Assembly: GCA_963727775.1 (NCBI GenBank)
Contig: CAVSHB010000004.1
Coordinates: 96,001 to 160,000 of the forward strand
Source of the DNA: an uncultured Nitrospiraceae bacterium
GTDB taxonomy: Bacteria > Nitrospirota > Thermodesulfovibrionia > Thermodesulfovibrionales > SM23-35
Reading direction: 5' to 3'
Length of the DNA: 64,000 nt
The notes under the pieces are model-generated. The model saw nothing but the letters and a program-made list of their open reading frames with translations, had not been told where the DNA came from and did not search any database. Position 1 is the stretch's first letter. Each line of letters opens with the position of its first letter. Positions 4,783 to 19,645 of the stretch are shown here, one piece after another. The position numbers and the translations under genes were made by a program.

Positions 4783-6057
4783 ATGCGCGTATTAATGGTT
4801 GGGCAAGGTGGGCGTGAACATGCCCTGTGTGTAAAGATAGCCAAGTCTCCTTTGTGTGAAGAACTCTTCTGCGCTCCCGGAAATGCTGGTATAAATGAAG
4901 TTGCTAAATGTATTCCTGTATCCTCTGAAAATACAGTAGGGCTGGTTGATTTTTGCAAACAGGCCACGATTGATTTTGTAGTTATTGGACCGGAAAATCC
5001 ATTAGTTGCAGGACTTGCTGACGTCCTTGAGAGCAATGGCATTCCGGTTTTTGGACCATCTAAAATGGCAGCGCAGCTCGAAGGCTCAAAGAGTTTTACA
5101 AAGGAGTTCTGTGTCGCATACAATATTCCAACAGCTGCTTTTGCCAGGTTTACAGGTGCCGCTGGTGCAAAATCTTACATTAGATCGCAGGGAACCCCGA
5201 TTGTCATTAAAGCCAATGGTTTGGCCGCAGGAAAAGGCGTAACCGTAGCTCAGAATTTTGAAGAGGCTTCAGCAGCCGTAGATGCCGCACTGATCGGTAA
5301 TAAGTTTGGGGAGGCGGGTCGGGAAATTGTAATTGAAGAATGTCTTACCGGAAAAGAATTTTCGTTTTTCGCTTTTGTAGACGGCTCAAGCGTTATGCCA
5401 CTTGCAACCGCCCAGGATTATAAACGTGTTGGTGACGGGGATTTGGGACCGAATACCGGTGGGATGGGGGCTTTGTCCCCTGCCTTAGGACTACCGGAAG
5501 GTATAGAGCAAGAGATGATGAAGACTGTAATCCTGCCTACTGTGGAAGGAATGAAAAAAATTGGCAGCCCTTTTAAAGGAATTTTGTATGCAGGAATGAT
5601 GCTTACCGAGGCCGGGCCCAAGCTGATTGAGTATAATGTGCGGTTTGGTGACCCGGAATGTCAGGCGCTTTTGATTCGCATGGATAACGATTTATTACCG
5701 ATTCTGATTGCTACTCATGAGGGCAAACTAGCAGACTTCGAACTTTCATGGGATCAAGATTTTTCTATATGTGTTGTGTTGGCTGCCGAAGGATATCCTG
5801 AAGCGCCCAAGAAAGGAAGTATTATATCTGGCCTTGCGGAAGCGGCTTCCAGTGACCCTGATGTGCAAATTTTACATGCTGCTACCAAATTTGACGGCGA
5901 CAATATAGTCGCTGATGGCGGTCGAGTATTAAATATTGTGGCACATGCCCCAACTATTGACCAGGCCCGCGCCAAAGCTTACGCAGTTGTCAAAAGAATA
6001 CATTGGCCGGAAGGGTTTTGTCGACGCGATATCGGAGCTAGTGTACTGTCCCACTAA
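4783..6057 (+). CDS. purD: Phosphoribosylamine--glycine ligase; last codons supplied by IS630
   Basis: GQGGREHAL, GPENPL, GLAAGKGV, QDYKR, GPNTGGMG and EYNVRFGDPE motifs. Confidence 0.95.
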   Translation: MRVLMVGQGGREHALCVKIAKSPLCEELFCAPGNAGINEVAKCIPVSSENTVGLVDFCKQATIDFVVIGPENPLVAGLADVLESNGIPVFGPSKMAAQLEGSKSFTKEFCVAYNIPTAAFARFTGAAGAKSYIRSQGTPIVIKANGLAAGKGVTVAQNFEEASAAVDAALIGNKFGEAGREIVIEECLTGKEFSFFAFVDGSSVMPLATAQDYKRVGDGDLGPNTGGMGALSPALGLPEGIEQEMMKTVILPTVEGMKKIGSPFKGILYAGMMLTEAGPKLIEYNVRFGDPECQALLIRMDNDLLPILIATHEGKLADFELSWDQDFSICVVLAAEGYPEAPKKGSIISGLAEAASSDPDVQILHAATKFDGDNIVADGGRVLNIVAHAPTIDQARAKAYAVVKRIHWPEGFCRRDIGASVLSH

Positions 6058-7177
6058 AAGCTGGACAATGATTAGTTGTCATGGTAAGCTATATGGCATG
6101 TGGGAAAAAGCAGAAGTTCTGGAGATGACAAAAGAGCAGCGCAGGACATTGGAAGCTTGGAAACGGGCTAAGACCAGCCCTCAGCGAGCAGTACTGCGAG
6201 CGAGTATTTGTCTTTTGGCGGCGGATGGCTTGTCGAACAACGCTATCGCGGCCCAACTGTCCACCTCCCGCCCGACAGTAATCCAATGGCGCAAACGTTT
6301 CGAAGAGCATGGACCGATGGGATTGGCCGAGGACGCACCCCATGGCCCGAGTCCACAGGCTCTTCCGCCGGACCGGGTGAAGGCCATTGTCGAAGCGACT
6401 CTCCACACGACACCTCGCGATGCCACGCAGTGGTCGGTGCGTTCGATGGCAAGGGCTCAGGGAGTCGGCAAGTCCACGGTGCAACGTATATGGGACGCGC
6501 ACGGTCTTCAGCCTCATCGCGTTGAGACATTCAAGTTATCCAAGGACAAGCGGTTTGTTGAAAAACTGACGGACGTGGTGGGAGTGTACTTGAATCCGCC
6601 GGACAAGGCGGTGGTGCTGTGTGTTGACGAGAAGAGCCAAGTTCAAGCGTTGGATCGGACACAACCCGGCTTGCCGATGAAGAAAGGGCGCTGCCGAACC
6701 ATGACCCATGACTATAAGCGCAATGGCACTACGTGTCTGTTCGCGGCGTTGAATGTGCTGGAGGGAAAAGTTATTGGCTCCTGTTATCCGAGGCATCGCA
6801 ACATCGAATTTCGGAAATTCCTGCGACAGATCGACGCCACCGTACCCTCGGAATTGGGCGTCCATATGATTCTGGATAATTATGGTACGCACAACCATCC
6901 CAAGGTTAAAGCATGGCTGAAAAAACATCCCCGATTTCACCTTCATTTCACGCCGACCAGTTCCTCATGGTTGAATCTGGTGGAGAGATGGTTCGGAGAG
7001 ATCACACGGAAACGCATTCGCTGTGGAGTTTTTCGCAGTGTTTCGGAACTTGTTGCGGCAATAGAAGACTTCATCCAGATCAACAACGAGAGTCCCAAGC
7101 CGTTTGTCTGGACGAAAAAGGTCGATGCCATCTTGGAAAAGGTCGTTCATTGTAAAGCCGTTAGTGGGACACTACAC
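6041..7177 (+). mobile_element. IS630-family insertion sequence
   Basis: TIRs GTGTACTGTCCCACTAA / GTGTAGTGTCCCACTAA; CTAG at 6038-6041 and 7177-7180 (TA duplication). Confidence 0.92.
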
Positions 7178-7180
7178 TAG
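6098..7180 (+). CDS. IS630 transposase
   Basis: VDEKSQVQALDR, THDYKRNGT, ILDNYGTH and PTSSSWLNLVERWF motifs. Confidence 0.95.
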   Translation: MWEKAEVLEMTKEQRRTLEAWKRAKTSPQRAVLRASICLLAADGLSNNAIAAQLSTSRPTVIQWRKRFEEHGPMGLAEDAPHGPSPQALPPDRVKAIVEATLHTTPRDATQWSVRSMARAQGVGKSTVQRIWDAHGLQPHRVETFKLSKDKRFVEKLTDVVGVYLNPPDKAVVLCVDEKSQVQALDRTQPGLPMKKGRCRTMTHDYKRNGTTCLFAALNVLEGKVIGSCYPRHRNIEFRKFLRQIDATVPSELGVHMILDNYGTHNHPKVKAWLKKHPRFHLHFTPTSSSWLNLVERWFGEITRKRIRCGVFRSVSELVAAIEDFIQINNESPKPFVWTKKVDAILEKVVHCKAVSGTLH

Positions 7181-8981: not shown

Positions 8982-9238
8982 CGACGTTCCTCAAGAACAG
9001 TTTTAGAAAGAGACTTGCCTTTAATTTTGATATTATCGAGCCCCTCGGGCTTTCCTCCTGACCACTTAGCCCTGCCTGAATCAATAAGTGACTTCAGAGC
9101 TTTCCTCTCTCTGGATATTGGGACAAACAAGGCAACTTCCTTGCCGTGTTCAGTTATGACGACTTCTTCGCCTTGGCGCACTCTATCAACATAACTGCTG
9201 AGTTTCGTCTTCAATTCTTTTATTCCCACAGAAATCAT
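8978..9238 (-). CDS. Phd/YefM antitoxin
   Basis: VGIKELKTKLSSYVDRVRQGEEVVITEHGKEVA; overlaps the toxin start. Confidence 0.9.
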   Translation of the reverse strand: MISVGIKELKTKLSSYVDRVRQGEEVVITEHGKEVALFVPISRERKALKSLIDSGRAKWSGGKPEGLDNIKIKGKSLSKTVLEERR

Positions 9239-9312
9239 ATTAACCTCCTTAGTACATATTATGGTTACAATATACAATAAAACTGGTTACATTAGCAATA
9301 GGAATGGCTACT

Positions 9313-9375
9313 TATCAACACGCTAAACTACCGGCTTGCTCTTATTGCCGGTCAGGTTTGACGCAGGTATTCGAC
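9313..9375 (-). other. Integron attC site
   Basis: Minus strand GTCGAAT-acctgcgtcaaacctgaccggc...gccggtagtttagcgt-GTTGATA; 8 nt after the restored DUF2726 stop; R'' nearly complements GTTCGAC at the cassette start. Confidence 0.7.
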
Positions 9376-9863
9376 ATTCTTTTTCATTGCTTATTTGCTA
9401 TTTCAGATTTGTTGCTGAAAAGGGAATTCTGGAGTTCCTGTATTGAATATTGCTGTTTCGCAGCAAAGTGAAAAACAGGGATATCAGCAGCCGCAAGAAC
9501 TTTGTCTATGAATTGGTCGCGGTATTGTCTTTTGGATTGATTATGGCTCTTGCGTCTAATTCTATTACAAATTTCACGCCGAGAGACGTGGAGTCACATG
9601 CAACAAAATCAAGGTGCTTGCTTTGAATCCGATTGAACGCTTTCTGCCATGTGCTCTTATTATTTCCTTTTTTTACTTTGACCACATCGGCAAGACGAAC
9701 TTTACCCATAATTCGCACTTTTCCGTCAACGGCTTGCTCAAGCACACCGAAAAATGACCGCTCCGCTGGCGTAAAAAGTGTCTGCTCTTTTTCGTATGGA
9801 TAATCTTCTGTATCGCCGCTTTTTCCTCTGAGAAATGTCTTTAATACTGTTGCGGCAATTCCA

Positions 9864-11204
9864 GGTAGTGTCAACTATTTTGTGTAAATTTGATAAAGGG
9901 GCAAATTGGGTCGCACCTTTCCTATTGGATTTGATCTCCAACTCAACTCCATCTTTAACGATATAAAAGCAAGAAGCCTATAACAGGCATCCTCTCCGGC
10001 TACTATCTCCATAGTCTTCGTTCTTCTCTTGAATTCCTTGTTCAGGCGCTCAATAATGTTCGACGTCCGTAATGATATCCATTCTTCTTCCGGGAACTTG
10101 AAGAATGTCAAACAGGCGTCTATTGACTGGCCTAATGATTTCACGGCTGAGGGGAGTTCTTTGCTCCACTTCGTGTAAAAGCTCCTGTAGAATTCATCTG
10201 CCTTTCCTTTTGAAGAGGCATAGAATATAGACCTCAGATCATCTGCTACTTCCTTTTTCAATTTATGAGGTACCTTCGCCAGTACATTACGGGCCACATG
10301 CACCTGGCACCTCTGCACTTTTGCATTGGGAAACTCTTCTTCAAATACTTTCTCCAGCCCAGAAAGCCCATCCATGATTCCCAGCCTCACCGATGACCCG
10401 TCGAGCCCTCTGCTTTTTAAATCCTTAAAAAACTCCCTCCAGTTCGTAGCCGATTCCTTGTCGCCGCTCTGCAGACCGAGCACTAATTTCGTTCCATCCC
10501 CTGTTACCCCTATTGCTGCAAGTACGGGGACATTCTCCACACTATACTTCAATCTCATCTTGAAGATCACGCCGTCTACAAAGATGTATTTTATTGGCTC
10601 CTGGGATAAATCACGGTTGCGCCAATTCTCTACCCCTGCCGTCAATTCCTTGCTCGCCTTGCTCACTTCTTCATGAGATATCTCACGCCCTATAAGTCTC
10701 TTGCTTAACATCGAGAGCGTCCGCGTGCTTATCCCCGTCAGATACATCATCGACAAATCCTCCGCGATCCTGGTTTCATATCGCTTCCCACGAGGCAATA
10801 CCTGTGTCTGATATTCGCCCTTCCGATCTCTAGGTACCTTTACTGCTACTTCTCCAATCCCCTTAATACAGAAGTCCCGGGGATAGCTCCCGTTGCGATG
10901 GTTGGCCTCCCCCTTGCCACGCTCATATCTTCCACGCCCTAAAACATGCGTCAGTTCTGCCTTCATCAGGTTCGTCAAATAGTTGCCTACGTCCTTTTGC
11001 ACATTCAGCGTGGCCATCTCAAATATCCTCGACGGATTCTCCTGCAATTCTTTGATTAAATTTACGACTTCTGGTACGCTAATCTTAATTTCCATGGGTG
11101 CTCCTCCTTTTGATTTTTGTTATTGGTCTAACAAAATATTTTATAGGAGGTGCGCCCTTATTTTTCCCCTCGTTTGAATTTCACACAGTCAAGTTTACAC
11201 TGTC
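9864..11204 (-). mobile_element. IS256-family insertion sequence
   Basis: TIRs GGTAGTGTCAAC / GACAGTGTAAAC; 8-bp TSD CAATTCCA at 9856-9863 and 11205-11212. Confidence 0.93.
9875..11095 (-). CDS. IS256 transposase
   Basis: RNGSY, VPRDR, QRCQVH and TSNIIERLNKEFKRR motifs. Confidence 0.95.
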   Translation of the reverse strand: MEIKISVPEVVNLIKELQENPSRIFEMATLNVQKDVGNYLTNLMKAELTHVLGRGRYERGKGEANHRNGSYPRDFCIKGIGEVAVKVPRDRKGEYQTQVLPRGKRYETRIAEDLSMMYLTGISTRTLSMLSKRLIGREISHEEVSKASKELTAGVENWRNRDLSQEPIKYIFVDGVIFKMRLKYSVENVPVLAAIGVTGDGTKLVLGLQSGDKESATNWREFFKDLKSRGLDGSSVRLGIMDGLSGLEKVFEEEFPNAKVQRCQVHVARNVLAKVPHKLKKEVADDLRSIFYASSKGKADEFYRSFYTKWSKELPSAVKSLGQSIDACLTFFKFPEEEWISLRTSNIIERLNKEFKRRTKTMEIVAGEDACYRLLAFISLKMELSWRSNPIGKVRPNLPLYQIYTK

Positions 11205-11416
11205 CAATTCCAAAGACGATCAGAATGGCAACCAATGGCCACAGACTTTGAATCATGGTTTTCTCCTTTATTTAGGTGTCGAACATGCGGCTCACCTGGA
11301 GCCAGCTTTTTCGGCGATCAGGTGCAGCCGATTGATACTCATTAAGGCCCCCCTGAACCATACCCGAATCAGGTATGATTCAGGAACCGAAATCATTTAC
11401 CAAAAGGAGGCCTCAA

Positions 11417-12463
11417 ATGAGATTTTACATCAAGCAGCACAAATTTTACTGCGGTATCGATCTTCACGCAAGGACTATGTACCTTTGCATCCTCAACCAG
11501 GAAGGAAAGATCGTCCTGCATAGGGACATCAAGACAGACCCCGACATCTTTCTCAAGACGATCGCGCCATATCGTGAGGACATCGTAGTTGCCGTTGAGT
11601 GCATCTTCACCTGGTACTGGCTCGCCGATCTCTGCTGTAAAGAGAATATTTCCTTCGTCCTTGGCCATGCTCTCTATATGAAAGCCATCCATGGCGGCAA
11701 AGCCAAGAACGACAAAATAGACGCATATAAGATAGCAGCCCTGCTTCGGGGCGGCATGATGCCCATGGCCTATGTTTATCCTTCCGATATGCGCTCCACC
11801 AGAGATCTGCTCAGGCGGCGCACTCACCTCGCAAGAAAAAGGGCTGAACTCATTGCCCATATCCAAAACACCAATCACCAGTATAACTTCGCCGATATGG
11901 GAAGGATCGCAAGGAAATGCGACAGAATCAAAGTAGGCGTTGCCGACCGCTTCACCGATCCCAGCGTACAAAAAAGCATAGAGCTCGATATCACCCTTAT
12001 CGAGCATTACGATAAACTCCTAAACCATCTCGAACATGAACTCTCTCTTATTGCGAAAGTGCATGATGCCGATTCCTATTTCCGCCTCCGCTCTATTCCA
12101 GGCGTCGGAAGGATCCTCGGCCTCACCATCCTCTATGAGATACATGATATCAACCGCTTCCCTCGCGTACAGGATTTTGTCTCATACTGCAGACTGGTGA
12201 AATCCGCCAAGGAGTCGGCTGGGAAAATAATCGGGGCATCCGGCAAGAAGATCGGCAATGCCCATCTGAAATGGGCCTTTTCCGAAGTTGCTGTGCTTTT
12301 CCTCAGGAGAAACCCAGAAGCCGTAAAATACCGCGCAAAGCTGGAGCGAAAGCACGGCAAGGCAAAGTCTCTGACCATCCTTGCTCATAAGCTTGCAAGG
12401 GCTGTCTATAATATCCTCAAGAAAAAGGAGGTGTTTAATCCTAAAGTATTCTTTGCGAAATAA
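11417..12463 (+). CDS. IS110 DEDD recombinase
   Basis: GIDLH, AVEC, KNDKIDA, SIPGVG and ESAG...KKIGN motifs. Confidence 0.95.
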   Translation: MRFYIKQHKFYCGIDLHARTMYLCILNQEGKIVLHRDIKTDPDIFLKTIAPYREDIVVAVECIFTWYWLADLCCKENISFVLGHALYMKAIHGGKAKNDKIDAYKIAALLRGGMMPMAYVYPSDMRSTRDLLRRRTHLARKRAELIAHIQNTNHQYNFADMGRIARKCDRIKVGVADRFTDPSVQKSIELDITLIEHYDKLLNHLEHELSLIAKVHDADSYFRLRSIPGVGRILGLTILYEIHDINRFPRVQDFVSYCRLVKSAKESAGKIIGASGKKIGNAHLKWAFSEVAVLFLRRNPEAVKYRAKLERKHGKAKSLTILAHKLARAVYNILKKKEVFNPKVFFAK

Positions 12464-12960
12464 AGCTGGGACCGGGTGAGCCTGTTCGTCTAACTGGCGC
12501 CATTAGGGTGAAGTCCGATAGATGCTCGTAAACATCATATGTTTGCAGCTTCGACTGCCCTTCGATCATCCTGGAATATTATGCCCGGCGCAAATACGCT
12601 TTGATTAGGACATCCGGTCCCTCATAACATATAAAGATTGTTAAGGTTCTGTCCCTTACCCGAGCCTGATACTAACTGGATGAGGCCACTGACCTGAACC
12701 AGACCTTTGAATAGGACGGTACAAGGGTACTAAATTGTTTCTAGGTCGTGGAGAACAAGGGCGATTGCTCTCTCCACTGTCGCCGGGGATAGAGATTGTG
12801 AAAACAGTTCTCTTTCTCATGGCTATTGAACCTCGATAAGTGTTTGGTGCAGACATTGATCTAACGCCGCATTTGAAACCAAGTCAGAGCTGGCGATGGT
12901 CTTTTAAAAAAAAGAAATAGAATTTTATTTTATTTCCGATCAGGATCGTTTTTTCTCTTG
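12464..12960 (+). ncRNA. Candidate bridge/seek RNA region
   Basis: About 500-nt non-coding region with duplicated GAGCCTG..TAACTGG and CTTTGA(T/A)TAGGAC modules; boundaries approximate. Confidence 0.6.
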
Positions 12961-12982
12961 ACAGGGCAGGGCCTTATAAGTG

Positions 12983-13570
12983 TTAAATGGTCTGTTCCAT
13001 CTTCTCTTTGGGTCTCTCGTCTACGTACGCATGGTAATTCTGTGAATCGGGACCCCAGTCGAAGAAAACCCCGACATCCTTATTCCTCATGGCAGTCGCA
13101 TGCTCGTCACTCAAGGACAAGTTTATGATCGAAAGGAGAAGCGGAGATCGTCTGCTTACCAAGGAAGCATAAACCTCGATAGTATAGCCGCCCGAAAGAA
13201 AATCGTAAGTAGTTCCATCTTTCGGTGTTAAGAAATGATGGTTACAGACTAGGCCGTCAATCCCGACAGTAATTCCCGAGCCACGGGCAAGAAACGTGTC
13301 TCCGTAAACCCACAGGTTGAACGTCTGCAAGGTCTCTCCTCGCTTTACTTTGACAAACATGCTCTCCACTATCTGATTCCTTCTTGACGTACTATAGAGA
13401 AGGGTTCGCAAAAAGACCTTCGACATTCCTTCGGGGTCTCGCCCGAAGAAGATCATCGTGGGTTGCGTCATCTTTATTGTGCCCTTTCTGAGAAGAGTAA
13501 GCCACGCAGTAAGCCCTGCGACAAACAGAGAGAATATGGCGATTACAATTGCAGCAATCTGGAGAACCAT
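12983..13570 (-). CDS. Hypothetical membrane-anchored protein (cassette)
   Basis: N-terminal TM helix; stop lies inside R'' ATTTAAC; core site GTTAAATGG at 13594-13602 complements CCATTTAAC. Confidence 0.8.
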   Translation of the reverse strand: MVLQIAAIVIAIFSLFVAGLTAWLTLLRKGTIKMTQPTMIFFGRDPEGMSKVFLRTLLYSTSRRNQIVESMFVKVKRGETLQTFNLWVYGDTFLARGSGITVGIDGLVCNHHFLTPKDGTTYDFLSGGYTIEVYASLVSRRSPLLLSIINLSLSDEHATAMRNKDVGVFFDWGPDSQNYHAYVDERPKEKMEQTI

Positions 13571-13636
13571 TATTTTATGCCTCTAATCTCTTTCCATTTA
13601 ACATTTACTTTTACGCATATTATATATTTGCTTAAA

Positions 13637-13665
13637 AGATTATAATTTCCCAAGTTGATTGTCAA
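13637..13665 (-). promoter_or_regulatory. Sigma70-type promoter facing the cassette array
   Basis: TTGACA-N15-TATAAT, or N17-TAATCT. Confidence 0.55.
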
Positions 13666-13764
13666 TAAAATTTACCGGAAAACCGCTGATAGGTGACTAA
13701 TAATTCTATATGCGGATCTGTTATTGATGGATGCAAAAGTAATGTCCTATCCCTGTTGCGAATT

Positions 13765-13825
13765 TGTCATTCTGGCTTGTCCAGAATCTTTCTTCCGGAA
13801 GGACTCCCGACAAGCGGGAGTGACA
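13765..13825. repeat. REP/dRS3-like palindromic element
   Basis: TGTCATTCTGGCTTGTCCAGAATC...GACTCCCGACAAGCGGGAGTGACA. Confidence 0.55.
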
Positions 13826-14295
13826 GACAGGGAGACGTTATGAGAACATTTACTTATATAGGAGTCTATAGTTTTCAGACAGGCTCTGTGTCTCTATATT
13901 TACTATTAACATACATTATTCATAATTCATAAGATTGCCGACAGATGCAGTATTTAAGCGGTTTTAAATGCTTTCGAAGAAAGAATTTACCTCGGAGGCC
14001 CGATTTGTACCGGGCCGAGAATGAGCGCAAATACTGTATTTGTCGATAGTAGCAAATTTTATGAATTAATCGGGTTAATTAATACGGAGGAGATATGGGC
14101 AGCAAAAGCTTGAGGGCAGCACCTTTGTGGGCGGCAAGATATCAAATTGGACCTGCGGTTTTAATGTTACGCGCAACAACATCGAGAAAACACAAATTCT
14201 GCATCCTCAAGGTTTTGATGCCCATATCTCCGACGTCCTGAGCCACTTTCGTAAAGACTAAAAAACGCGTATGTGTGACGGGTCTGACTAAAAGA

Positions 14296-15171
14296 TTATA
14301 GTCCGGCTTCTTCCAGAACCATAGGGACCTTCTTCTCCCAGCCGATAGCCATGATGTGGACACCCTGGCAGAGGTCTTTCATGCCCTTAATAAGTTGCGC
14401 GGCTATCTTGACGCTGGTTTTTGTCTTGTCCTTTGTCTCTTCCATCTCTTTAATGAAAGGATCGGGAACGGACACGCCGGCCACATTTTTATTCATGAAC
14501 TTGGCCATACCGGCTGATTTGAGAAGGATGATCCCGCCCATTACCGGGACCTTAAAACCTTCTACCCGTTTCATAAATTTTTCGAAGAGGTCTAAATCGA
14601 ATATGCCCTGGGTCTGAAAGAATCTTGCGCCGGCTTCGATCTTCTTCTCCATCTTAATAATCTGCATCTCCAATGCGGCTTCATTATCGGCCCCGGGGTT
14701 TACCACCGCTCCGGGAAATAATTGCGTAGCGCCCTTAAGCTGGTTACCCATCATGTCAAAACCTTCATTGAGTTTACTTATCACCCTTAACAGGCCGACG
14801 GAATCCAGATCGAAAACAGGCATCGCCTCAGGGTGATCGCCGAGTGACGGATGGTCTCCGGTTAGGGCCAGCACATTTCTGATACCCAGGACCCAGGCGC
14901 TTAACAGATCGGATTGGAGCGCCAGCCGGTTTCTGTCCCTGCATGTCATTTGGAAGATAGGATCGATACCGTGGTCCGTAAGGAGGTGGCTAACCGCCAT
15001 CGAACCCAATCGCATAACAGAGCTCTGCAGGTCGGTGACATTGATCGCATCCACTTTCCCTTTAAGGAGTTCCGCGTCTTCCAGTAATACGTCTGTATCT
15101 GTTCCTTTAGCCGGACCTATCTCAGCCGTGATAAGGAACTTGCCGGAATCTAAAGCCTCCCTCAATCCCAT
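14296..15171 (-). CDS. metF: Methylenetetrahydrofolate reductase
   Basis: TAEIGP, TCRDRNRLALQSDL, ALTGDH and GARFFQTQ motifs. Confidence 0.93.
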   Translation of the reverse strand: MGLREALDSGKFLITAEIGPAKGTDTDVLLEDAELLKGKVDAINVTDLQSSVMRLGSMAVSHLLTDHGIDPIFQMTCRDRNRLALQSDLLSAWVLGIRNVLALTGDHPSLGDHPEAMPVFDLDSVGLLRVISKLNEGFDMMGNQLKGATQLFPGAVVNPGADNEAALEMQIIKMEKKIEAGARFFQTQGIFDLDLFEKFMKRVEGFKVPVMGGIILLKSAGMAKFMNKNVAGVSVPDPFIKEMEETKDKTKTSVKIAAQLIKGMKDLCQGVHIMAIGWEKKVPMVLEEAGL

Positions 15172-15172
15172 C

Positions 15173-15856
15173 TCATTTTGATCCTTTTGCAGGCCCCTTC
15201 TTCAGCCTCAAATCTTCTCTCACCATCCTCCGGGGGCTTACAGGTCTTGTCTTCGGCTTGGTCATCCCGCTCAGGACATCAGCCATTTTTGTTTTCCCGA
15301 GTTGCGCGTATATGAGCTGCCACGCGCATGGGTTGTCCTTCGAAACCTCGCACATGCCGGCCTTTGCCCCGCCGCAAGGACCGTTGATCAACTTTTTAGC
15401 ACAACGCGCCACAGGGCATATTCCGCCTGTTTTATGGAGTATGCAGTCTCCGCACGCCGCACAAACCTCAACCCATGTACCCTGTCCGCCTGAAAGTCCG
15501 AGGAAAGTAGTATTCATCGCAGGCAAAACAGTGACCCCTTTCAGTCTCTCGGCGATACCCTGCACACCGGCCCCGCAAGCCATAGACAGGACTGCATCGT
15601 ACTGAGAAGCCTCTTCTTTTATCTGATCGATGAATTCCGGATCGCACTGCCGTAATATCGTCTTTTCTCCTGCAACAATCTCTTTGCCTTCCAGTTTCTT
15701 TGCCATCCTGATAGAAGAAGCCAGCAGTTCAACCTGCCGCTCACCACCGCTCATGCAGACGGTGACACAGGTGCCGCAGCCGAGGACCATAACTTTCTTG
15801 CAGTCCTTCAGCATCTCCTTTATCTCGTCGAAAGGTTTGAGTTCAGCGACAATCAT
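15173..15856 (-). CDS. metV: MTHFR small Fe-S subunit MetV
   Basis: GCGTCVTVC and CAACGDC...GICPVARCAKKLINGPCGG motifs; adjacent to metF. Confidence 0.88.
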   Translation of the reverse strand: MIVAELKPFDEIKEMLKDCKKVMVLGCGTCVTVCMSGGERQVELLASSIRMAKKLEGKEIVAGEKTILRQCDPEFIDQIKEEASQYDAVLSMACGAGVQGIAERLKGVTVLPAMNTTFLGLSGGQGTWVEVCAACGDCILHKTGGICPVARCAKKLINGPCGGAKAGMCEVSKDNPCAWQLIYAQLGKTKMADVLSGMTKPKTRPVSPRRMVREDLRLKKGPAKGSK

Positions 15857-17874
15857 GGCACTACCTTCTTTCCCGTACGTAAGGGATTTACACCCATGGC
15901 ATCAAGCCTCTCCCGGAAATGCTCGAAATCCTCATCTCCAGAAATGATGGCCAGTCTATCTTCTCCCAGGCCTATTTCATTTAAAATCTTTTTGGCCCTT
16001 TTTATATGTTCCTCCATCCATCGAGCGCCATCCCTGAAACGGCATGCGTCAATGGTGCACATGTGTACAGCAACACCTTCAACGCCAAGTTCAAAAGGAT
16101 AAAGTATCTCCGATTCTTTCAGATTGCCGGTGCAGTATCTTCCGAGCCAGTATATATCGTCCCTCTCAACAGGGGGGCTCAAAGGAGAATCATATCTGCA
16201 ATAGAAACCGATTACGAGGATTTCCGGCTCCTCTTCTCTTGCGGAATCCACAAGCTGATCCAATTCCGTATGCAGGTCTTCTTTTCCTATTCTTTCAATA
16301 TCTATCGCAGCTGCCGGGCATTCAGATGCGCAGATTCCGCAGGACTGACATTGACTGATATCTATTTCCGCTATCTCCCTTCCCGGGACCGGCACGCCGA
16401 AGGGACATATACGGACACAATTGAGACATGCCGCACAGGTCTCTGTAACCGATGCCCCTGCGCCGCAGTTCAGGCATCGCATGGCTTCCCTGCATGCCTG
16501 CTCCTGGGTATAGCCCAAATCCACTTCTGCAAAATTATCGATGCGTTCTTCAAACGGCAAAGTCGGCATCTTCTGTCTCTCAGATTTATTTAACAAATTA
16601 ACCACATTCTCATCTAAGGCCCGCAAAGGCTCAGCGACATGATGTCCTTTATCCGGTTCATTGCGAAAATAACGGTGTATTGCTTCAGCAGCTCTTCTTC
16701 CAGCTGCCATTGCTTCGATGACACTCATGGGACCCGTCACGACATCGCCCGCGGCAAAAACGCCCTTTATGTTGGTAATGCCCGTCTCGTCCTGAACGAT
16801 CACGGTACCCTTCCGGTTTATAGTTAAGCCATTGTGAGTAAGGGCTTCCGCGTCAGGGATATACCCGATCGCAGATATTACTGTATCAACTTTCAATTCA
16901 AACTCGCTGTTTTCTATCGGCTCCGGCCTTCTTCTTCCCGAAGCATCTGGCGCTCCGAGCTCCATCTTCACAAGCTTTACACTCCGGACCTTACCTTCAC
17001 CTACGAACCCGACCGGAGAAGTCAGGTACAGCATCTTGACCCCTTCCTTTTCAGCCTCCTCCACCTCTTCTTTGCCGGCAGGTATCTCATCCAGTGTCCG
17101 GCGATAAATAATGGTAACGTCCGGACATCCAAGGCGGACGGAGGTCCGCGCCGCGTCGATAGCGGTATGCCCTCCCCCGATAACCAATACCCTTTGTCCC
17201 AAATCCGGAACCTGTCCCCTGCATACCGATTTAAGAAATTCAAAACCGGAGATTATTCCGGACAGATCGTTCCCGTCGCACTTCGGCAATATGCTCTTCT
17301 GGCTGCCTACAGCCAAAAAAACCGCATGATAATCTTTAAGAAGTCCTTCGAGGGTAAAATCTTTGCCGAGAGAAAGGCCGGTCTCCGCTTCAATACCCAA
17401 GGATAAGATATTATCTATTTCTTGTTTTACGAGCTCTTTCGGGAGTCTATATTCCGGAATTCCTTCGCTCAATAATCCGCCGAGCACATTCCGCGCTTCA
17501 TATATAGTGACTTTGTAACCGAGCAATGCGAGGTCGTGGGCCGCTATAAGACCGGCCGGTCCGCCCCCGATTACGGCTATCTTTTCGGCGTATGAATTTC
17601 GGGGTTTTTCCAGGAGGTCCAGTTTTTTTGTCTGATCAACCGCAAAGCGTTTCAAAGCCCTTATCGAAACAGGCTTGTCCACCTGTGCGCGCCTGCAGGC
17701 CTTTTCACATAGCCGGGTGCAGATCCTTCCGCAAACAGATGGTAACGGGTTTACCTGGCGGATAATATGAATTGCTTTTTCTACATTATTTTGGGCAATA
17801 GCGGAAACATAACCGCGGACATCGGTTTTTATCGGACATGCTGCCTGGCAAGGGGGTATGGCTTTTTCACTCAT
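15853..17874 (-). CDS. GltD/NfnB-like FAD/Fe-S oxidoreductase fused to ferredoxin and MvhD-like domains
   Basis: PCQAACP, CGRICTRLCE, GGGPAG, GGGHTAID, two CxxCxxCxxxCP motifs, C-terminal GFYC..YCTG..C...CRF. Confidence 0.85.
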   Translation of the reverse strand: MSEKAIPPCQAACPIKTDVRGYVSAIAQNNVEKAIHIIRQVNPLPSVCGRICTRLCEKACRRAQVDKPVSIRALKRFAVDQTKKLDLLEKPRNSYAEKIAVIGGGPAGLIAAHDLALLGYKVTIYEARNVLGGLLSEGIPEYRLPKELVKQEIDNILSLGIEAETGLSLGKDFTLEGLLKDYHAVFLAVGSQKSILPKCDGNDLSGIISGFEFLKSVCRGQVPDLGQRVLVIGGGHTAIDAARTSVRLGCPDVTIIYRRTLDEIPAGKEEVEEAEKEGVKMLYLTSPVGFVGEGKVRSVKLVKMELGAPDASGRRRPEPIENSEFELKVDTVISAIGYIPDAEALTHNGLTINRKGTVIVQDETGITNIKGVFAAGDVVTGPMSVIEAMAAGRRAAEAIHRYFRNEPDKGHHVAEPLRALDENVVNLLNKSERQKMPTLPFEERIDNFAEVDLGYTQEQACREAMRCLNCGAGASVTETCAACLNCVRICPFGVPVPGREIAEIDISQCQSCGICASECPAAAIDIERIGKEDLHTELDQLVDSAREEEPEILVIGFYCRYDSPLSPPVERDDIYWLGRYCTGNLKESEILYPFELGVEGVAVHMCTIDACRFRDGARWMEEHIKRAKKILNEIGLGEDRLAIISGDEDFEHFRERLDAMGVNPLRTGKKVVP

Positions 17875-18038
17875 TTGTTCATTCCTCCGGCTAAACTTCC
17901 TAAAAAATACTTTGTGCCTTCGGCACCCCTATATGAATACTTTACCTCATCGACACAAAACAGTAAACGCAGTACCCTTACCTCCCTCGCGGGCATTACA
18001 TATAGTGGCTTATCTCCCTGCATTCTGCAGCTTCCACT

Positions 18039-18887
18039 TTAGCCTGCAGCGTTCGCGGCCTGTACGGTATTGTACATGAGCATCGCTATTGTCATTGGGC
18101 CCGCGCCGCCCGGAACAGGCGTGATAAAAGCCGCGAGCTCCTTGGCGGCTTCAAAATCTACGTCGCCTACGATCTTGCCTTCTTCATTAACATTTATGCC
18201 TATATCTATTATCGCGGCCCCTTCTTTTATCCAGTCACCTTTTACAAATTTCGGCTTTCCGATCGCAACACACAGGATGTCCGCCCTGAGACATTCTGCC
18301 TTGAGGTCCGCAGTCCTGCTGTGGCAGATCGTGACAGTCGCATTTTTCCTCAGCAGAAGCAATGCCAGCGGCTTTCCGACAATCACACTTCTCCCCAGGA
18401 CAACCGCGTGTTTTCCGGACGGGTCAATGCCGTAGGCTTCGAGCATCTTCATGGCGCCGTGTGGAGTGCACGGAAGATATCCTGCTTCATCAAGGACCAG
18501 CCTGCCGAGAGACTGCGGCCCGAATCCGTCCACATCCTTCTCAGGCGCGATCCTGTTCATGACCTCTTTTTCATCAAGACCTTTCGGCAAAGGGAGCTGG
18601 ATGAGAATCCCGTGGACTTTTTTATCGCTATTCAGCGCGTCTACCAGCTTCATGAGTTCTTCCTGTGTAGTTGTCTCCGGTATTTTATGCGCTATGCTCG
18701 TTATCCCGAGCTGAACGCACGTTTTTTCCTTTGAGGCGACATATTTTTTAGACGCGGGGTTTTCTCCCACGAGAACAACGGCGAGACATGGATCGATACC
18801 CCTTGCCTTCAGATCTGCGATCTTCTTTTTCAGGTCCTCCTGAATGTCTGCCGCTACCTTTTTACCATCGATTATTTGCGCTGACAT
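18039..18887 (-). CDS. folD: Methylene-THF dehydrogenase/cyclohydrolase
   Basis: GILIQLPLP, KDVDG, PCTP, GRSVIVGKP and TPVPGGAGPMT motifs. Confidence 0.96.
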   Translation of the reverse strand: MSAQIIDGKKVAADIQEDLKKKIADLKARGIDPCLAVVLVGENPASKKYVASKEKTCVQLGITSIAHKIPETTTQEELMKLVDALNSDKKVHGILIQLPLPKGLDEKEVMNRIAPEKDVDGFGPQSLGRLVLDEAGYLPCTPHGAMKMLEAYGIDPSGKHAVVLGRSVIVGKPLALLLLRKNATVTICHSRTADLKAECLRADILCVAIGKPKFVKGDWIKEGAAIIDIGINVNEEGKIVGDVDFEAAKELAAFITPVPGGAGPMTIAMLMYNTVQAANAAG

Positions 18888-19081
18888 TTTCCCTCCGTAT
18901 TTACAGGAATTTTTGATAATGCAGATGTTGTGATTAAATTTATTTTTCGATACAAAATCGTACCTTCAATCGATGATTCCCGGAATATCTATTCGATAGA
19001 ACAAATAGAGATAATACCAATAATCCATCGAGTTAAATAAATTTATGAACAATATCTGCATTATTCCAATTAAAGAACAGA

Positions 19082-19645
19082 CTAATCCCTTTTCTTGATA
19101 AGCTCCAATAATTCTTCTCTTGTAGACTGTTTGGTCCTGAATATCCCTCTGACAGCCGATGTGACCGTACGCGAACCTGACTTCTTTACCCCTCTCATAC
19201 TTATGCACAAATGCTCCGCATCAATAATAACCATCGCGCCCTTTGGCTTCAGTTTATTCATTATTAAATCGGCAAGTTGCGTTGTTAAACGCTCCTGCAC
19301 CTGCAGCCTCTTTGCCAGGACCTCGACAGATTTGACAAGCTCGCTTAGTCCTACAATCTTTCCGCCGGAAGGGATATACGCAACATGCACCTTCCCTATG
19401 AATGGAAGCATATGATGCTCGCAGACGGAATAAAACGGGATATCTTTAAGGAGCACCATCTCGTCGTGGGTTTCGCCCTCAATAGCTTTCAGTAATTCTT
19501 CAGTGGGGGTCTCAAGGCCGGCGAATATCTCCTGGTACATCCTTGCAACACGTTCAGGAGTCTCTTTGATACCGGACCTTTCCGGGTCTTCACCGATCCC
19601 TTCGAGAATCATCCTTACGCCTTTTTCTATTTTTTTAAGATCCAT
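19082..19645 (-). CDS. folE: GTP cyclohydrolase I
   Basis: [26 protein letters not shown] and HLCISMRG motifs. Confidence 0.95.

Follow-up and report, generated by a model that had tools for sequence, protein, structure and literature searches.

A likely bridge (seek) RNA gene in the 3′ non-coding stretch of an IS1111-type insertion sequence, predicted to direct insertion into attC-like sites

Introduction

Why does an insertion sequence of 1,648 bp carry 519 nt of non-coding DNA downstream of its transposase gene, as against 83 nt upstream of it? The question is raised by an IS1111-type insertion sequence (IS) at about positions 11335-12982, on the plus strand, of a 64,000-nt stretch of DNA (the window) from an uncultured Nitrospiraceae bacterium (assembly GCA_963727775.1, contig CAVSHB010000004.1, positions 96,001 to 160,000). 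In the IS1111 group, whose marks have been described in two studies, the guide RNA is located in the 3′ non-coding region (Siddiquee et al., PMC11187229; Durrant et al., PMC11208160). A first-pass annotation of the window, made from the sequence alone, had described the region as bridge-RNA-like and built from two duplicated modules, one reading the target and the other the donor, that is, the joined ends of the element. Comparison with related loci indicates that the stretch very probably holds a conserved folded RNA gene, the element's likely bridge (seek) RNA, and that the predicted role of this RNA is to guide the recombinase to integron-like attC sites. The system is of a kind known since 2024, and relatives of the family may already stand in the supplementary tables of two papers from that year.

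Results

Relatives were collected by a scan of one genome per species, which gave 554 confirmed elements; the best 80 were kept (79 loci, 55-87% protein identity). In most of these 79 loci the transposase gene is followed by the same scaffold of two modules, with inserts that vary; the scaffold is kept down to 55-60% protein identity, and the conserved RNA structure is about 425 nt long. The motifs on which the first-pass annotation had been built are all in place: GAGCC-TGTTCGTC-TAACTGG (12478-12497) and CTTTGATTAGGAC (12599-12611), GAGCC-TGATAC-TAACTGG (12662-12679) and CTTTGAATAGGAC (12705-12717), GATTGTTAA (12636-12644), and ATAAGTG (12836-12842). The 7-mer TGATACT at 12667-12673 repeats 11333-11339 (last flank T plus left end), ATAAGTG(TT) repeats 12976-12984, and GATTGTTAA equals the end of the left flank joined to the start of the right flank. 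Matches of this kind were weighed against 2000 first-order Markov simulations of the region, each compared with both junctions and with the empty site and circle junction as reconstructed. In the region, 13 exact 7-mers recur in these sequences against a mean of 4.8 (16 of 2000 simulations reach 13), as do three exact 9-mers against 0.34 (55 of 2000).

The element's ends lie at about 11335 and 12982 because three copies in its own genome, 100% identical, have differing flanks; all three show left junctions ..T-TG-ATACT.. and right junctions ..AAG-TG-TT... One G is common to both junctions, and the limits are therefore uncertain by one base. The transposase gene (11417-12463, plus strand) encodes 348 amino acids of the DEDD/IS110 family, with Pfam matches to the IS110-type N-terminal and C-terminal domains (PF01548, 9.6e-16; PF02371, 2.7e-18) and an NCBIfam match to the IS110 family RNA-guided transposase (NF033542, 201.5 bits; cut-off 140). 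The left end (11335-11358), nearly invariant among relatives, consists of the extension ATACTCAT and the subterminal inverted repeat TAAGGCCCCCCTG (in outline ATACTCAT-TAAGGCCCC.., the repeat being also written TAAGGCCC..). Its counterpart on the right (12958-12982) holds a −35-like TTGACA (12958-12963), the partner repeat, and the short terminal extension (..GGGCCTTA-TAAGTG). In relatives a variable repeat position changes at both ends together (TTAAGG/CCTTAT, TTGAGG/CCTCAT, TCCAGG/CCTGAT). With its DEDD domains, subterminal repeats, and long 3′ non-coding region, the element is by sequence one that bears the marks of the IS1111 group.

The left flank (11272-11334) is an attC-like imperfect palindrome ending in TTG, the last G being the base common with the right junction. 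The right flank begins TTAAATG (12983-12989) and, with the shared G added, reads GTTAAAT, which fits GTTRRRY, the pattern of the attC R′ box. Left flanks of relatives share ..GTCnGCTG-nAGCG-nn-TTG, and their right flanks mostly continue after G^ with TTAGGC, TTAAGC, or TTATAC. From these sequences, the flanks look like the 3′ half of imperfect palindromes of attC type that end in G^TTRRRY, the R′ box pattern. Empty paralogues were found by BLAST of the flanks. One, in the element's own genome (C1:926212-926275), is exactly as long as left flank plus one G plus right flank, and a second, in the genome of L035, shows the same exact fit; because of both lengths, one G (or TG) is taken as shared and the insertion is placed at TTG^TTAG. 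TT as the core, or no shared base, was rejected: each needs an indel against both empty paralogues, whereas the single shared G needs none (two comparisons). An IUPAC pattern for empty attC sites, which was too strict, had no match in five relatives' genomes, and no integron integrase was found among 13 open reading frames tested in window positions 1-30000. A hairpin in the left flank, GGCTCACCTGGAGCC (11289-11303), is followed by a T run and scores as terminator-like; the attC-like palindrome could double as the terminator of the upstream gene.

Module 1 (12468-12621) was folded both as a single sequence and with RNAalifold. The predicted fold has an outer stem (12468-12475 with 12614-12621), a GAG/AC internal loop, a CCU/AGG helix, a large internal guide loop, and an inner stem with a variable insert. 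From 36 sequences RNAalifold predicted 13 pairs, inner hairpin included, and compensatory changes occur in 12 of them, 7 in the outer stem. For the covariation test, loop strands were anchored on conserved bases and flanks on element ends, and the two were compared within each locus, permutation of the loci serving as the control. The left-target guide, ACGCUUUG (12596-12603), which AU (12604-12605) follows, is itself identical to the left-flank top strand: the bases just 5′ of UUGAUU correspond to positions −3 to −6 from the G of TTG. Positions −4, −5, and −6 were reached in 0 to 1 of 2000 permutations each (n = 52), and the span −3 to −8 gave 2.42 against 1.53 (0 of 5000), with shifted registers not significant. 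At L060 and L061 the guide CGAGUUGAU matches at nine of nine positions, and L076 offers a further example (CAUCAUGAU).

On the other side of the loop, the right-target guide CGUCUAAC (12487-12494) is complementary to the right-flank top strand G+TTAGNNN, and in relatives the strand that ends in CUAAC shows complementarity to the right flank that starts at the G and extends to about +6. Permutation (n = 55) gave 1 of 2000 at +2, 24 of 2000 at +4, and 2 of 2000 at +6, with 13 of 5000 for the positions as a span; examples are L025, where GCACAAC faces the flank GTTGTGC, and L031, with ten matches of ten. The order of the guides, a top-strand match 5′ of a bottom-strand match, agrees with that reported for IS1111 seekRNAs (PMC11187229). 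With both of its strands covarying with the flanks, module 1 is, as far as comparative sequence can tell, the target-binding loop.

To that extent the first-pass annotation was right about module 1; the bases that it had singled out as the guide, TGTT(CG), were not the right ones. TGTT follows GAGCC in only 4 of the 31 loci with a strict-pattern 5′ strand, although the TTG^TT core is nearly constant, and at +7 to +10, the flank positions that would lie opposite TGTT, no covariation is seen. The covarying guides fall within what had been supposed to be constant scaffold (TAACTGG, CTTTGATT), and they look constant because attC-type targets share TTG^TTAG. Module 1 is followed by a linker (12622-12645) in which GAUUGUUAA (12636-12644) is a copy of the target core TTG^TTA. 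This motif had been put forward as a match to the empty target, and in the window it is one; its GATTGT is kept only in the closest clade, and its relation to each locus's own target is weak (239 of 5000 permutations for identity, 21 of 5000 for the complement).

The remainder of the structure is predicted to be a donor-binding multiloop domain (12646-12890), closed by a long-range helix of 12646-12651 (GUUCUG) with 12885-12890 (CAGAGC). Compensatory changes occur in this helix (GGGCUG/CAGCCC in L065, GCCCUG/CGGGGC in L023, GUCCUG/CAGGAC in L067), and a fold of the whole region pairs the same parts. A variable arm of the multiloop (12743-12833) is closed by 12743-12746 (AGGU) with 12830-12833 (ACCU); its four closing pairs are canonical in 57, 56, 57, and 52 of 60 loci, the fourth being U-A in 26, C-G in 16, and U-G in 6. 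Alignment and a motif list also mark a conserved GAAACCAAG (12875-12883), which is single-stranded in nearly all relatives and resembles the module 2 5′ loop of some of them (UGAAACUAAC). Many IS1111 bridge RNAs have their donor-binding nucleotides in a multiloop (Durrant et al., PMC11208160).

Two strands of the multiloop, one on each side of the variable arm's closing helix, are the candidate donor guides. The left-donor guide, AUAAGUG (12836-12842) plus UU (12843-12844), equals the right-end terminus and the first two right-flank bases, and such a copy lies about 150-160 nt before the right end in every relative. Variants of the right end change together with it: ATAGGTG (nine loci), ATAGATG (L040, L027), ATACGTG (L067, L038), and ATATGTG (L089). 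In a subgroup whose right flank starts with TA the guide has ..GTGTA, three loci matching at 10 of 10 positions and L051 at 9 of 10. The right-donor guide region CUAAAUUGUUUC (12730-12741), (AAAUU)GUUUC, has a GUUUC core complementary to left-end G-A-(T)-A-C; many relatives have an extended strand, AUGAGUUUC, which apart from one constant mismatch is the complement of the left end GATACTCAT.

Permutation gave, for the left-donor guide (n = 52), 0.88 against 0.52 at end position −4 and 0.98 against 0.86 at flank position +1 (both 0 of 2000) and, for the right-donor guide (n = 47), 0.74 against 0.37 at left-end position 6 (0 of 2000), 19 of 2000 at position 7, and 0 of 5000 for the positions as a span, values that overstate the support because guides and ends are inherited together. 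For that reason the states were also placed on a transposase tree of 44 loci, in which at least five separate lineages show matched states other than the default one and 32 of the 44 loci match over right-end positions −5 to −1. The donor guides thus appear to lie in the multiloop, (AAAUU)GUUUC tracking the left end and AUAAGUG+UU tracking right-end variants, both more weakly than the target guides track the flanks. The first-pass assignment of ATAAGTG as the donor (right-end) guide holds up, and its broader proposal, an RNA of IS1111 bridge/seek type, is upheld as a prediction by the conserved structure and the covarying target and donor guides. In four relatives with right ends ..TAAGGG (L033, L042, L060, L061), the left-donor guide AUAGGUG faces the end ATAAGGG; this mismatch, seen in three lineages, may reflect a one-base register slip or tolerated mismatches.

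Internal copies of terminal and target sequences could also act as DNA, with the internal ATAAGTGTT and the target-like TTG^TT motifs serving as alternative ends or decoy sites and the modules as protein-binding repeats. The element has indeed inserted into its own non-coding region at such motifs, in one own-genome copy (copy B) at ..AAATTG^TTTCTAGG and at L080 at the linker, and an internal right-end copy would be expected to change along with the true end here as well. Against this stand helices that flank the motifs and keep pairing through changes on both sides; the paired changes argue for action as RNA rather than as DNA. Moreover, the internal ATAAGTG has no subterminal repeat adjoining it, a match to both strands of unrelated flanking DNA is to be expected of an RNA guide, and RNAs derived from the non-coding region have been demonstrated experimentally for other IS1111 members (PMC11187229). 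Action at the DNA level is consequently exceedingly unlikely as the explanation.

Module 2 (12653-12727) forms an arm of the multiloop on the same scaffold as module 1 (CCCUU/AAGGG, CCG/CGG, CCN/N′GG, and inner CUGG/CCAG). Its CCN/N′GG pair, which takes three forms among the relatives, is canonical in 49 of 53 loci, and its loops keep the core-facing UAAC and UUUGA and are otherwise variable. In the first-pass model this module reads the circle junction through UGAUACU (core plus left end), while module 1 reads the target through TGTT(CG). The 7-mer shared with the left end, the scaffold common to both modules, reminiscent of the two loops of IS621, the position of module 2 within the donor domain, and the retention of UGAUAC in five close relatives speak for that model. 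TGATACT is, however, the left end in 38 of 48 loci and occurs in module 2 of 4 of those 38, and UGAGGAC or UGAAGAC stands there in relatives whose protein is 83% identical and whose left end is the same. Module-2 strands show no diagonal covariation with either end, module 1 lends no support through TGTT, and a sense-strand match would pair with the bottom strand, opposite to the module 1 5′ strand. The model is quite improbable, and a donor-guide role for module 2 is not supported by these comparisons; two of the four guide assignments in the first-pass annotation thus failed when homologues were aligned and their cores checked for covariation.

Alternatively, module 2 could be a second target-type loop that re-reads the attC core (TTTG / GTTA) or specifies an alternative target, leaving two target readers and one donor reader. 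Consistent with this, it keeps UAAC and UUUGA, the core-facing bases of module 1; its NAAC changes along with module 1 and the flank (UUAC in the GTAGG-target subgroup, CAAC in L025, GAAC in L056, L065, and L088), and its agreement with right-flank position +1 is 0.96 against 0.84 (0 of 2000). The covarying cases belong to few lineages, however, and outside the core, module 2 agrees with the flanks no better than chance. Where the modules differ, matches to the left flank favor module 1 over module 2 by 15 to 7, 13 to 6, and 17 to 7, and matches to the right flank by 23 to 1 and 21 to 8; in the distal flanks, 8-160 nt out on either side, module-2 strands gave no signal. We consider a second target reader unlikely. 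The same grade applies to its fullest form, in which this widespread environmental lineage would have a guide RNA of three parts: the target loop, the donor-reading multiloop, and, inside the donor domain, a further loop of target type. Both halves of the synapse would then hold the crossover, and strands would be exchanged bottom strand first, in mirror image of IS621, at the same G^TT that integron integrases use.

Other comparisons of module 2 gave little. A weak identity signal between its strands and the inner element ends (23 and 10 of 2000) was traced to clade-specific similarities; comparison of module-2 and module-1 strands with other parts of the RNA (module-1 insert, linker, downstream part) gave nothing consistent, the best value being 8 of 2000; and an exact match of the variable hexamer upstream of the transposase gene was found only in the TGATAC group. 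The CCN/N′GG pair correlates with the variable pair of the subterminal repeats (0.67 against 0.41), with many exceptions, and the correlation is possibly due to shared descent. In the closest clade only, an inner part of module 2, CCTGAACCAGACC (12693-12705), is identical at 12 of 13 positions to CCTGAACCATACC at the left end (11352-11364).

The element's copies and surroundings provided further observations. Copy B (own genome, C4:11437-13343, minus strand) is a complete copy directly adjoined by a partial 3′ piece of the same element that begins at a point equivalent to window positions 12733-12745; it thus sits inside the right-donor-guide region of another copy. L080 likewise adjoins its own linker and module-2 sequence, and the target-like TTG^TT motifs of the RNA gene are apparently favored sites of self-insertion. 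In copy C (C1:1529824-1532614) the RNA gene has its donor domain split by a 1135-bp insertion with CTAG on both sides, at the equivalent of window positions 12741-12744; this is probably another small insertion sequence. An RNA-library contig of a related element (run X19) joins the equivalent of window position 11385 to 12645, passing from the left end to the start of the donor domain and skipping the transposase gene and module 1. This single contig, which differs at 4 of 54 bases, may represent a derivative that lacks the transposase. Just upstream of the element in the window lie IS630-like (DDE_3) and IS256/Mutator-like transposase genes (5936-7180 and 9875-11095), and the end of the latter (about 11150-11208) is found again at five further sites in the genome. 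This IS-rich patch, in which the element lies, adjoins folate/C1-metabolism genes (14296-19645).

Discussion

The comparative data show four predicted guide strands in register with the four DNA arms of the reaction, together with conservation of the structure that would present them. A working model follows from this arrangement. The RNA would be transcribed together with the transposase mRNA from a junction promoter formed when the ends are joined: the −10-like hexamer GATACT (from 11334) at the left end would then stand 18 nt from TTGACA, a spacing deduced from the sequence. A promoter scan found no plus-strand promoter-like site inside the element, no circle junction was seen among matching sequencing-run contigs, and an intrinsic-terminator scan made no call at the 3′ end of the RNA region. 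The RNA would bind the DEDD recombinase; its first domain would pair with both strands of the attC-like site around TTG^TTAG and its second with the joined ends, and strand exchange by the recombinase would fall on the shared G, which corresponds to G^TT in the attC R′ box. Behind each identity guide stand two bases that repeat the start of the partner DNA, AU (left-target guide) for the left end and UU (left-donor guide) for the right flank, a putative handshake in mirror image of that of IS621. Module 2 may serve as a recombinase-docking arm of the donor domain.

Several points weigh against this reading or limit it. An Rfam scan of 9000-16000 at E values up to 1 returned two chance-level hits, neither in the region. 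DNA contigs of sequencing runs cover parts of the element at 99% identity or more; the matching RNA-library contigs are fragmentary and come from relatives at 90-95% identity, so that they cannot show transcripts, ends, or strand. Besides the common inheritance of guides and ends that inflates the donor-guide permutation values, 12 of the 44 loci fail to match over right-end positions −5 to −1, and position −2 is never tracked. The right-donor guide of the window makes about four left-end pairs, with the GUUUC core alone, and no 10-mer complementary to the left end at 8 or more of 10 positions was found anywhere in the window's non-coding region. The handshake draws its support from a single subgroup of four loci, in which UA goes with flank TA, and from one locus among the three whose left end is changed, and module 2, strongly conserved as it is, has no more than a putative docking role in this model. 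In addition, the flanks of the own-genome copies fit the guides poorly by hand count (left 4, 5, and 2 of 8; right 6, 4, and 6 of 8); since the three copies are identical, they would have been active recently, though at sites poorly matched to the guides.

Among characterized systems, the nearest are the IS1111 seekRNAs of ISEc11 and ISPa11 and of the attC-targeting ISKpn4, ISPst6, and ISPa25 (Siddiquee et al. 2024, PMC11187229). As described there, they likewise have the RNA downstream of the transposase gene, subterminal inverted repeats, and no target duplication, and the ISKpn4 group targets attC, the class of site that the flanks here resemble. The present RNA region is longer, with about 425 nt of conserved structure against 148-172 nt for the long forms; known here from sequence, it has an extra module-1-like arm and identifiable donor guides. 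In Table 1 of a review (PMC13604230), the ISKpn4 group is listed as inserting at TTGAA*CGAATTGTTAG, about 11 bases before GTTAG, whereas the present element inserts at TTG^TTAG, inside the R′ box. The present lineage therefore appears to use a different point in the same class of site.

The bridge RNA of IS621 and the IS110 group (PMC11208160; Hiraizumi et al. 2024, PMC11208158) offers a second comparison. As in those accounts, a single RNA would have separate target and donor readers, both DNA strands would be read around a shared core, and extra bases beside the guides would match the partner DNA, a handshake that is putative here. In contrast to IS621, the RNA lies at the 3′ rather than the 5′ side of the element, the guide order is reversed, and the donor guides are placed in a multiloop instead of a simple internal loop. 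It is after the sense-strand guides that the putative handshake bases stand here, whereas those of IS621 come after RTG and RDG (PMC11208158). The shared core differs as well, being one G (or TG) rather than CT.

The integron integrase (IntI) crosses over at G^TT of the attC R′ box. The element described here appears to use the same class of DNA site and, by reconstruction, the same point within it. IntI is an unrelated tyrosine recombinase that reads folded, single-stranded attC; the present element, in contrast, is predicted to employ an RNA-guided DEDD recombinase.

In sum, tools for programmable DNA insertion are under development from RNA-guided IS110/IS1111 recombinases, of which the IS1111 branch is the less well understood. 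This locus and the roughly 80 relatives fetched with it form a natural data set in which target and donor guides, putative handshake bases, and scaffold can be read position by position. The conserved module 2 poses a testable question about how the donor half of the IS1111 synapse is built. Finally, in many uncultured phyla this lineage apparently targets the R′ box of attC-like sites, which is relevant to how insertion sequences may colonize and disrupt integron cassette arrays.

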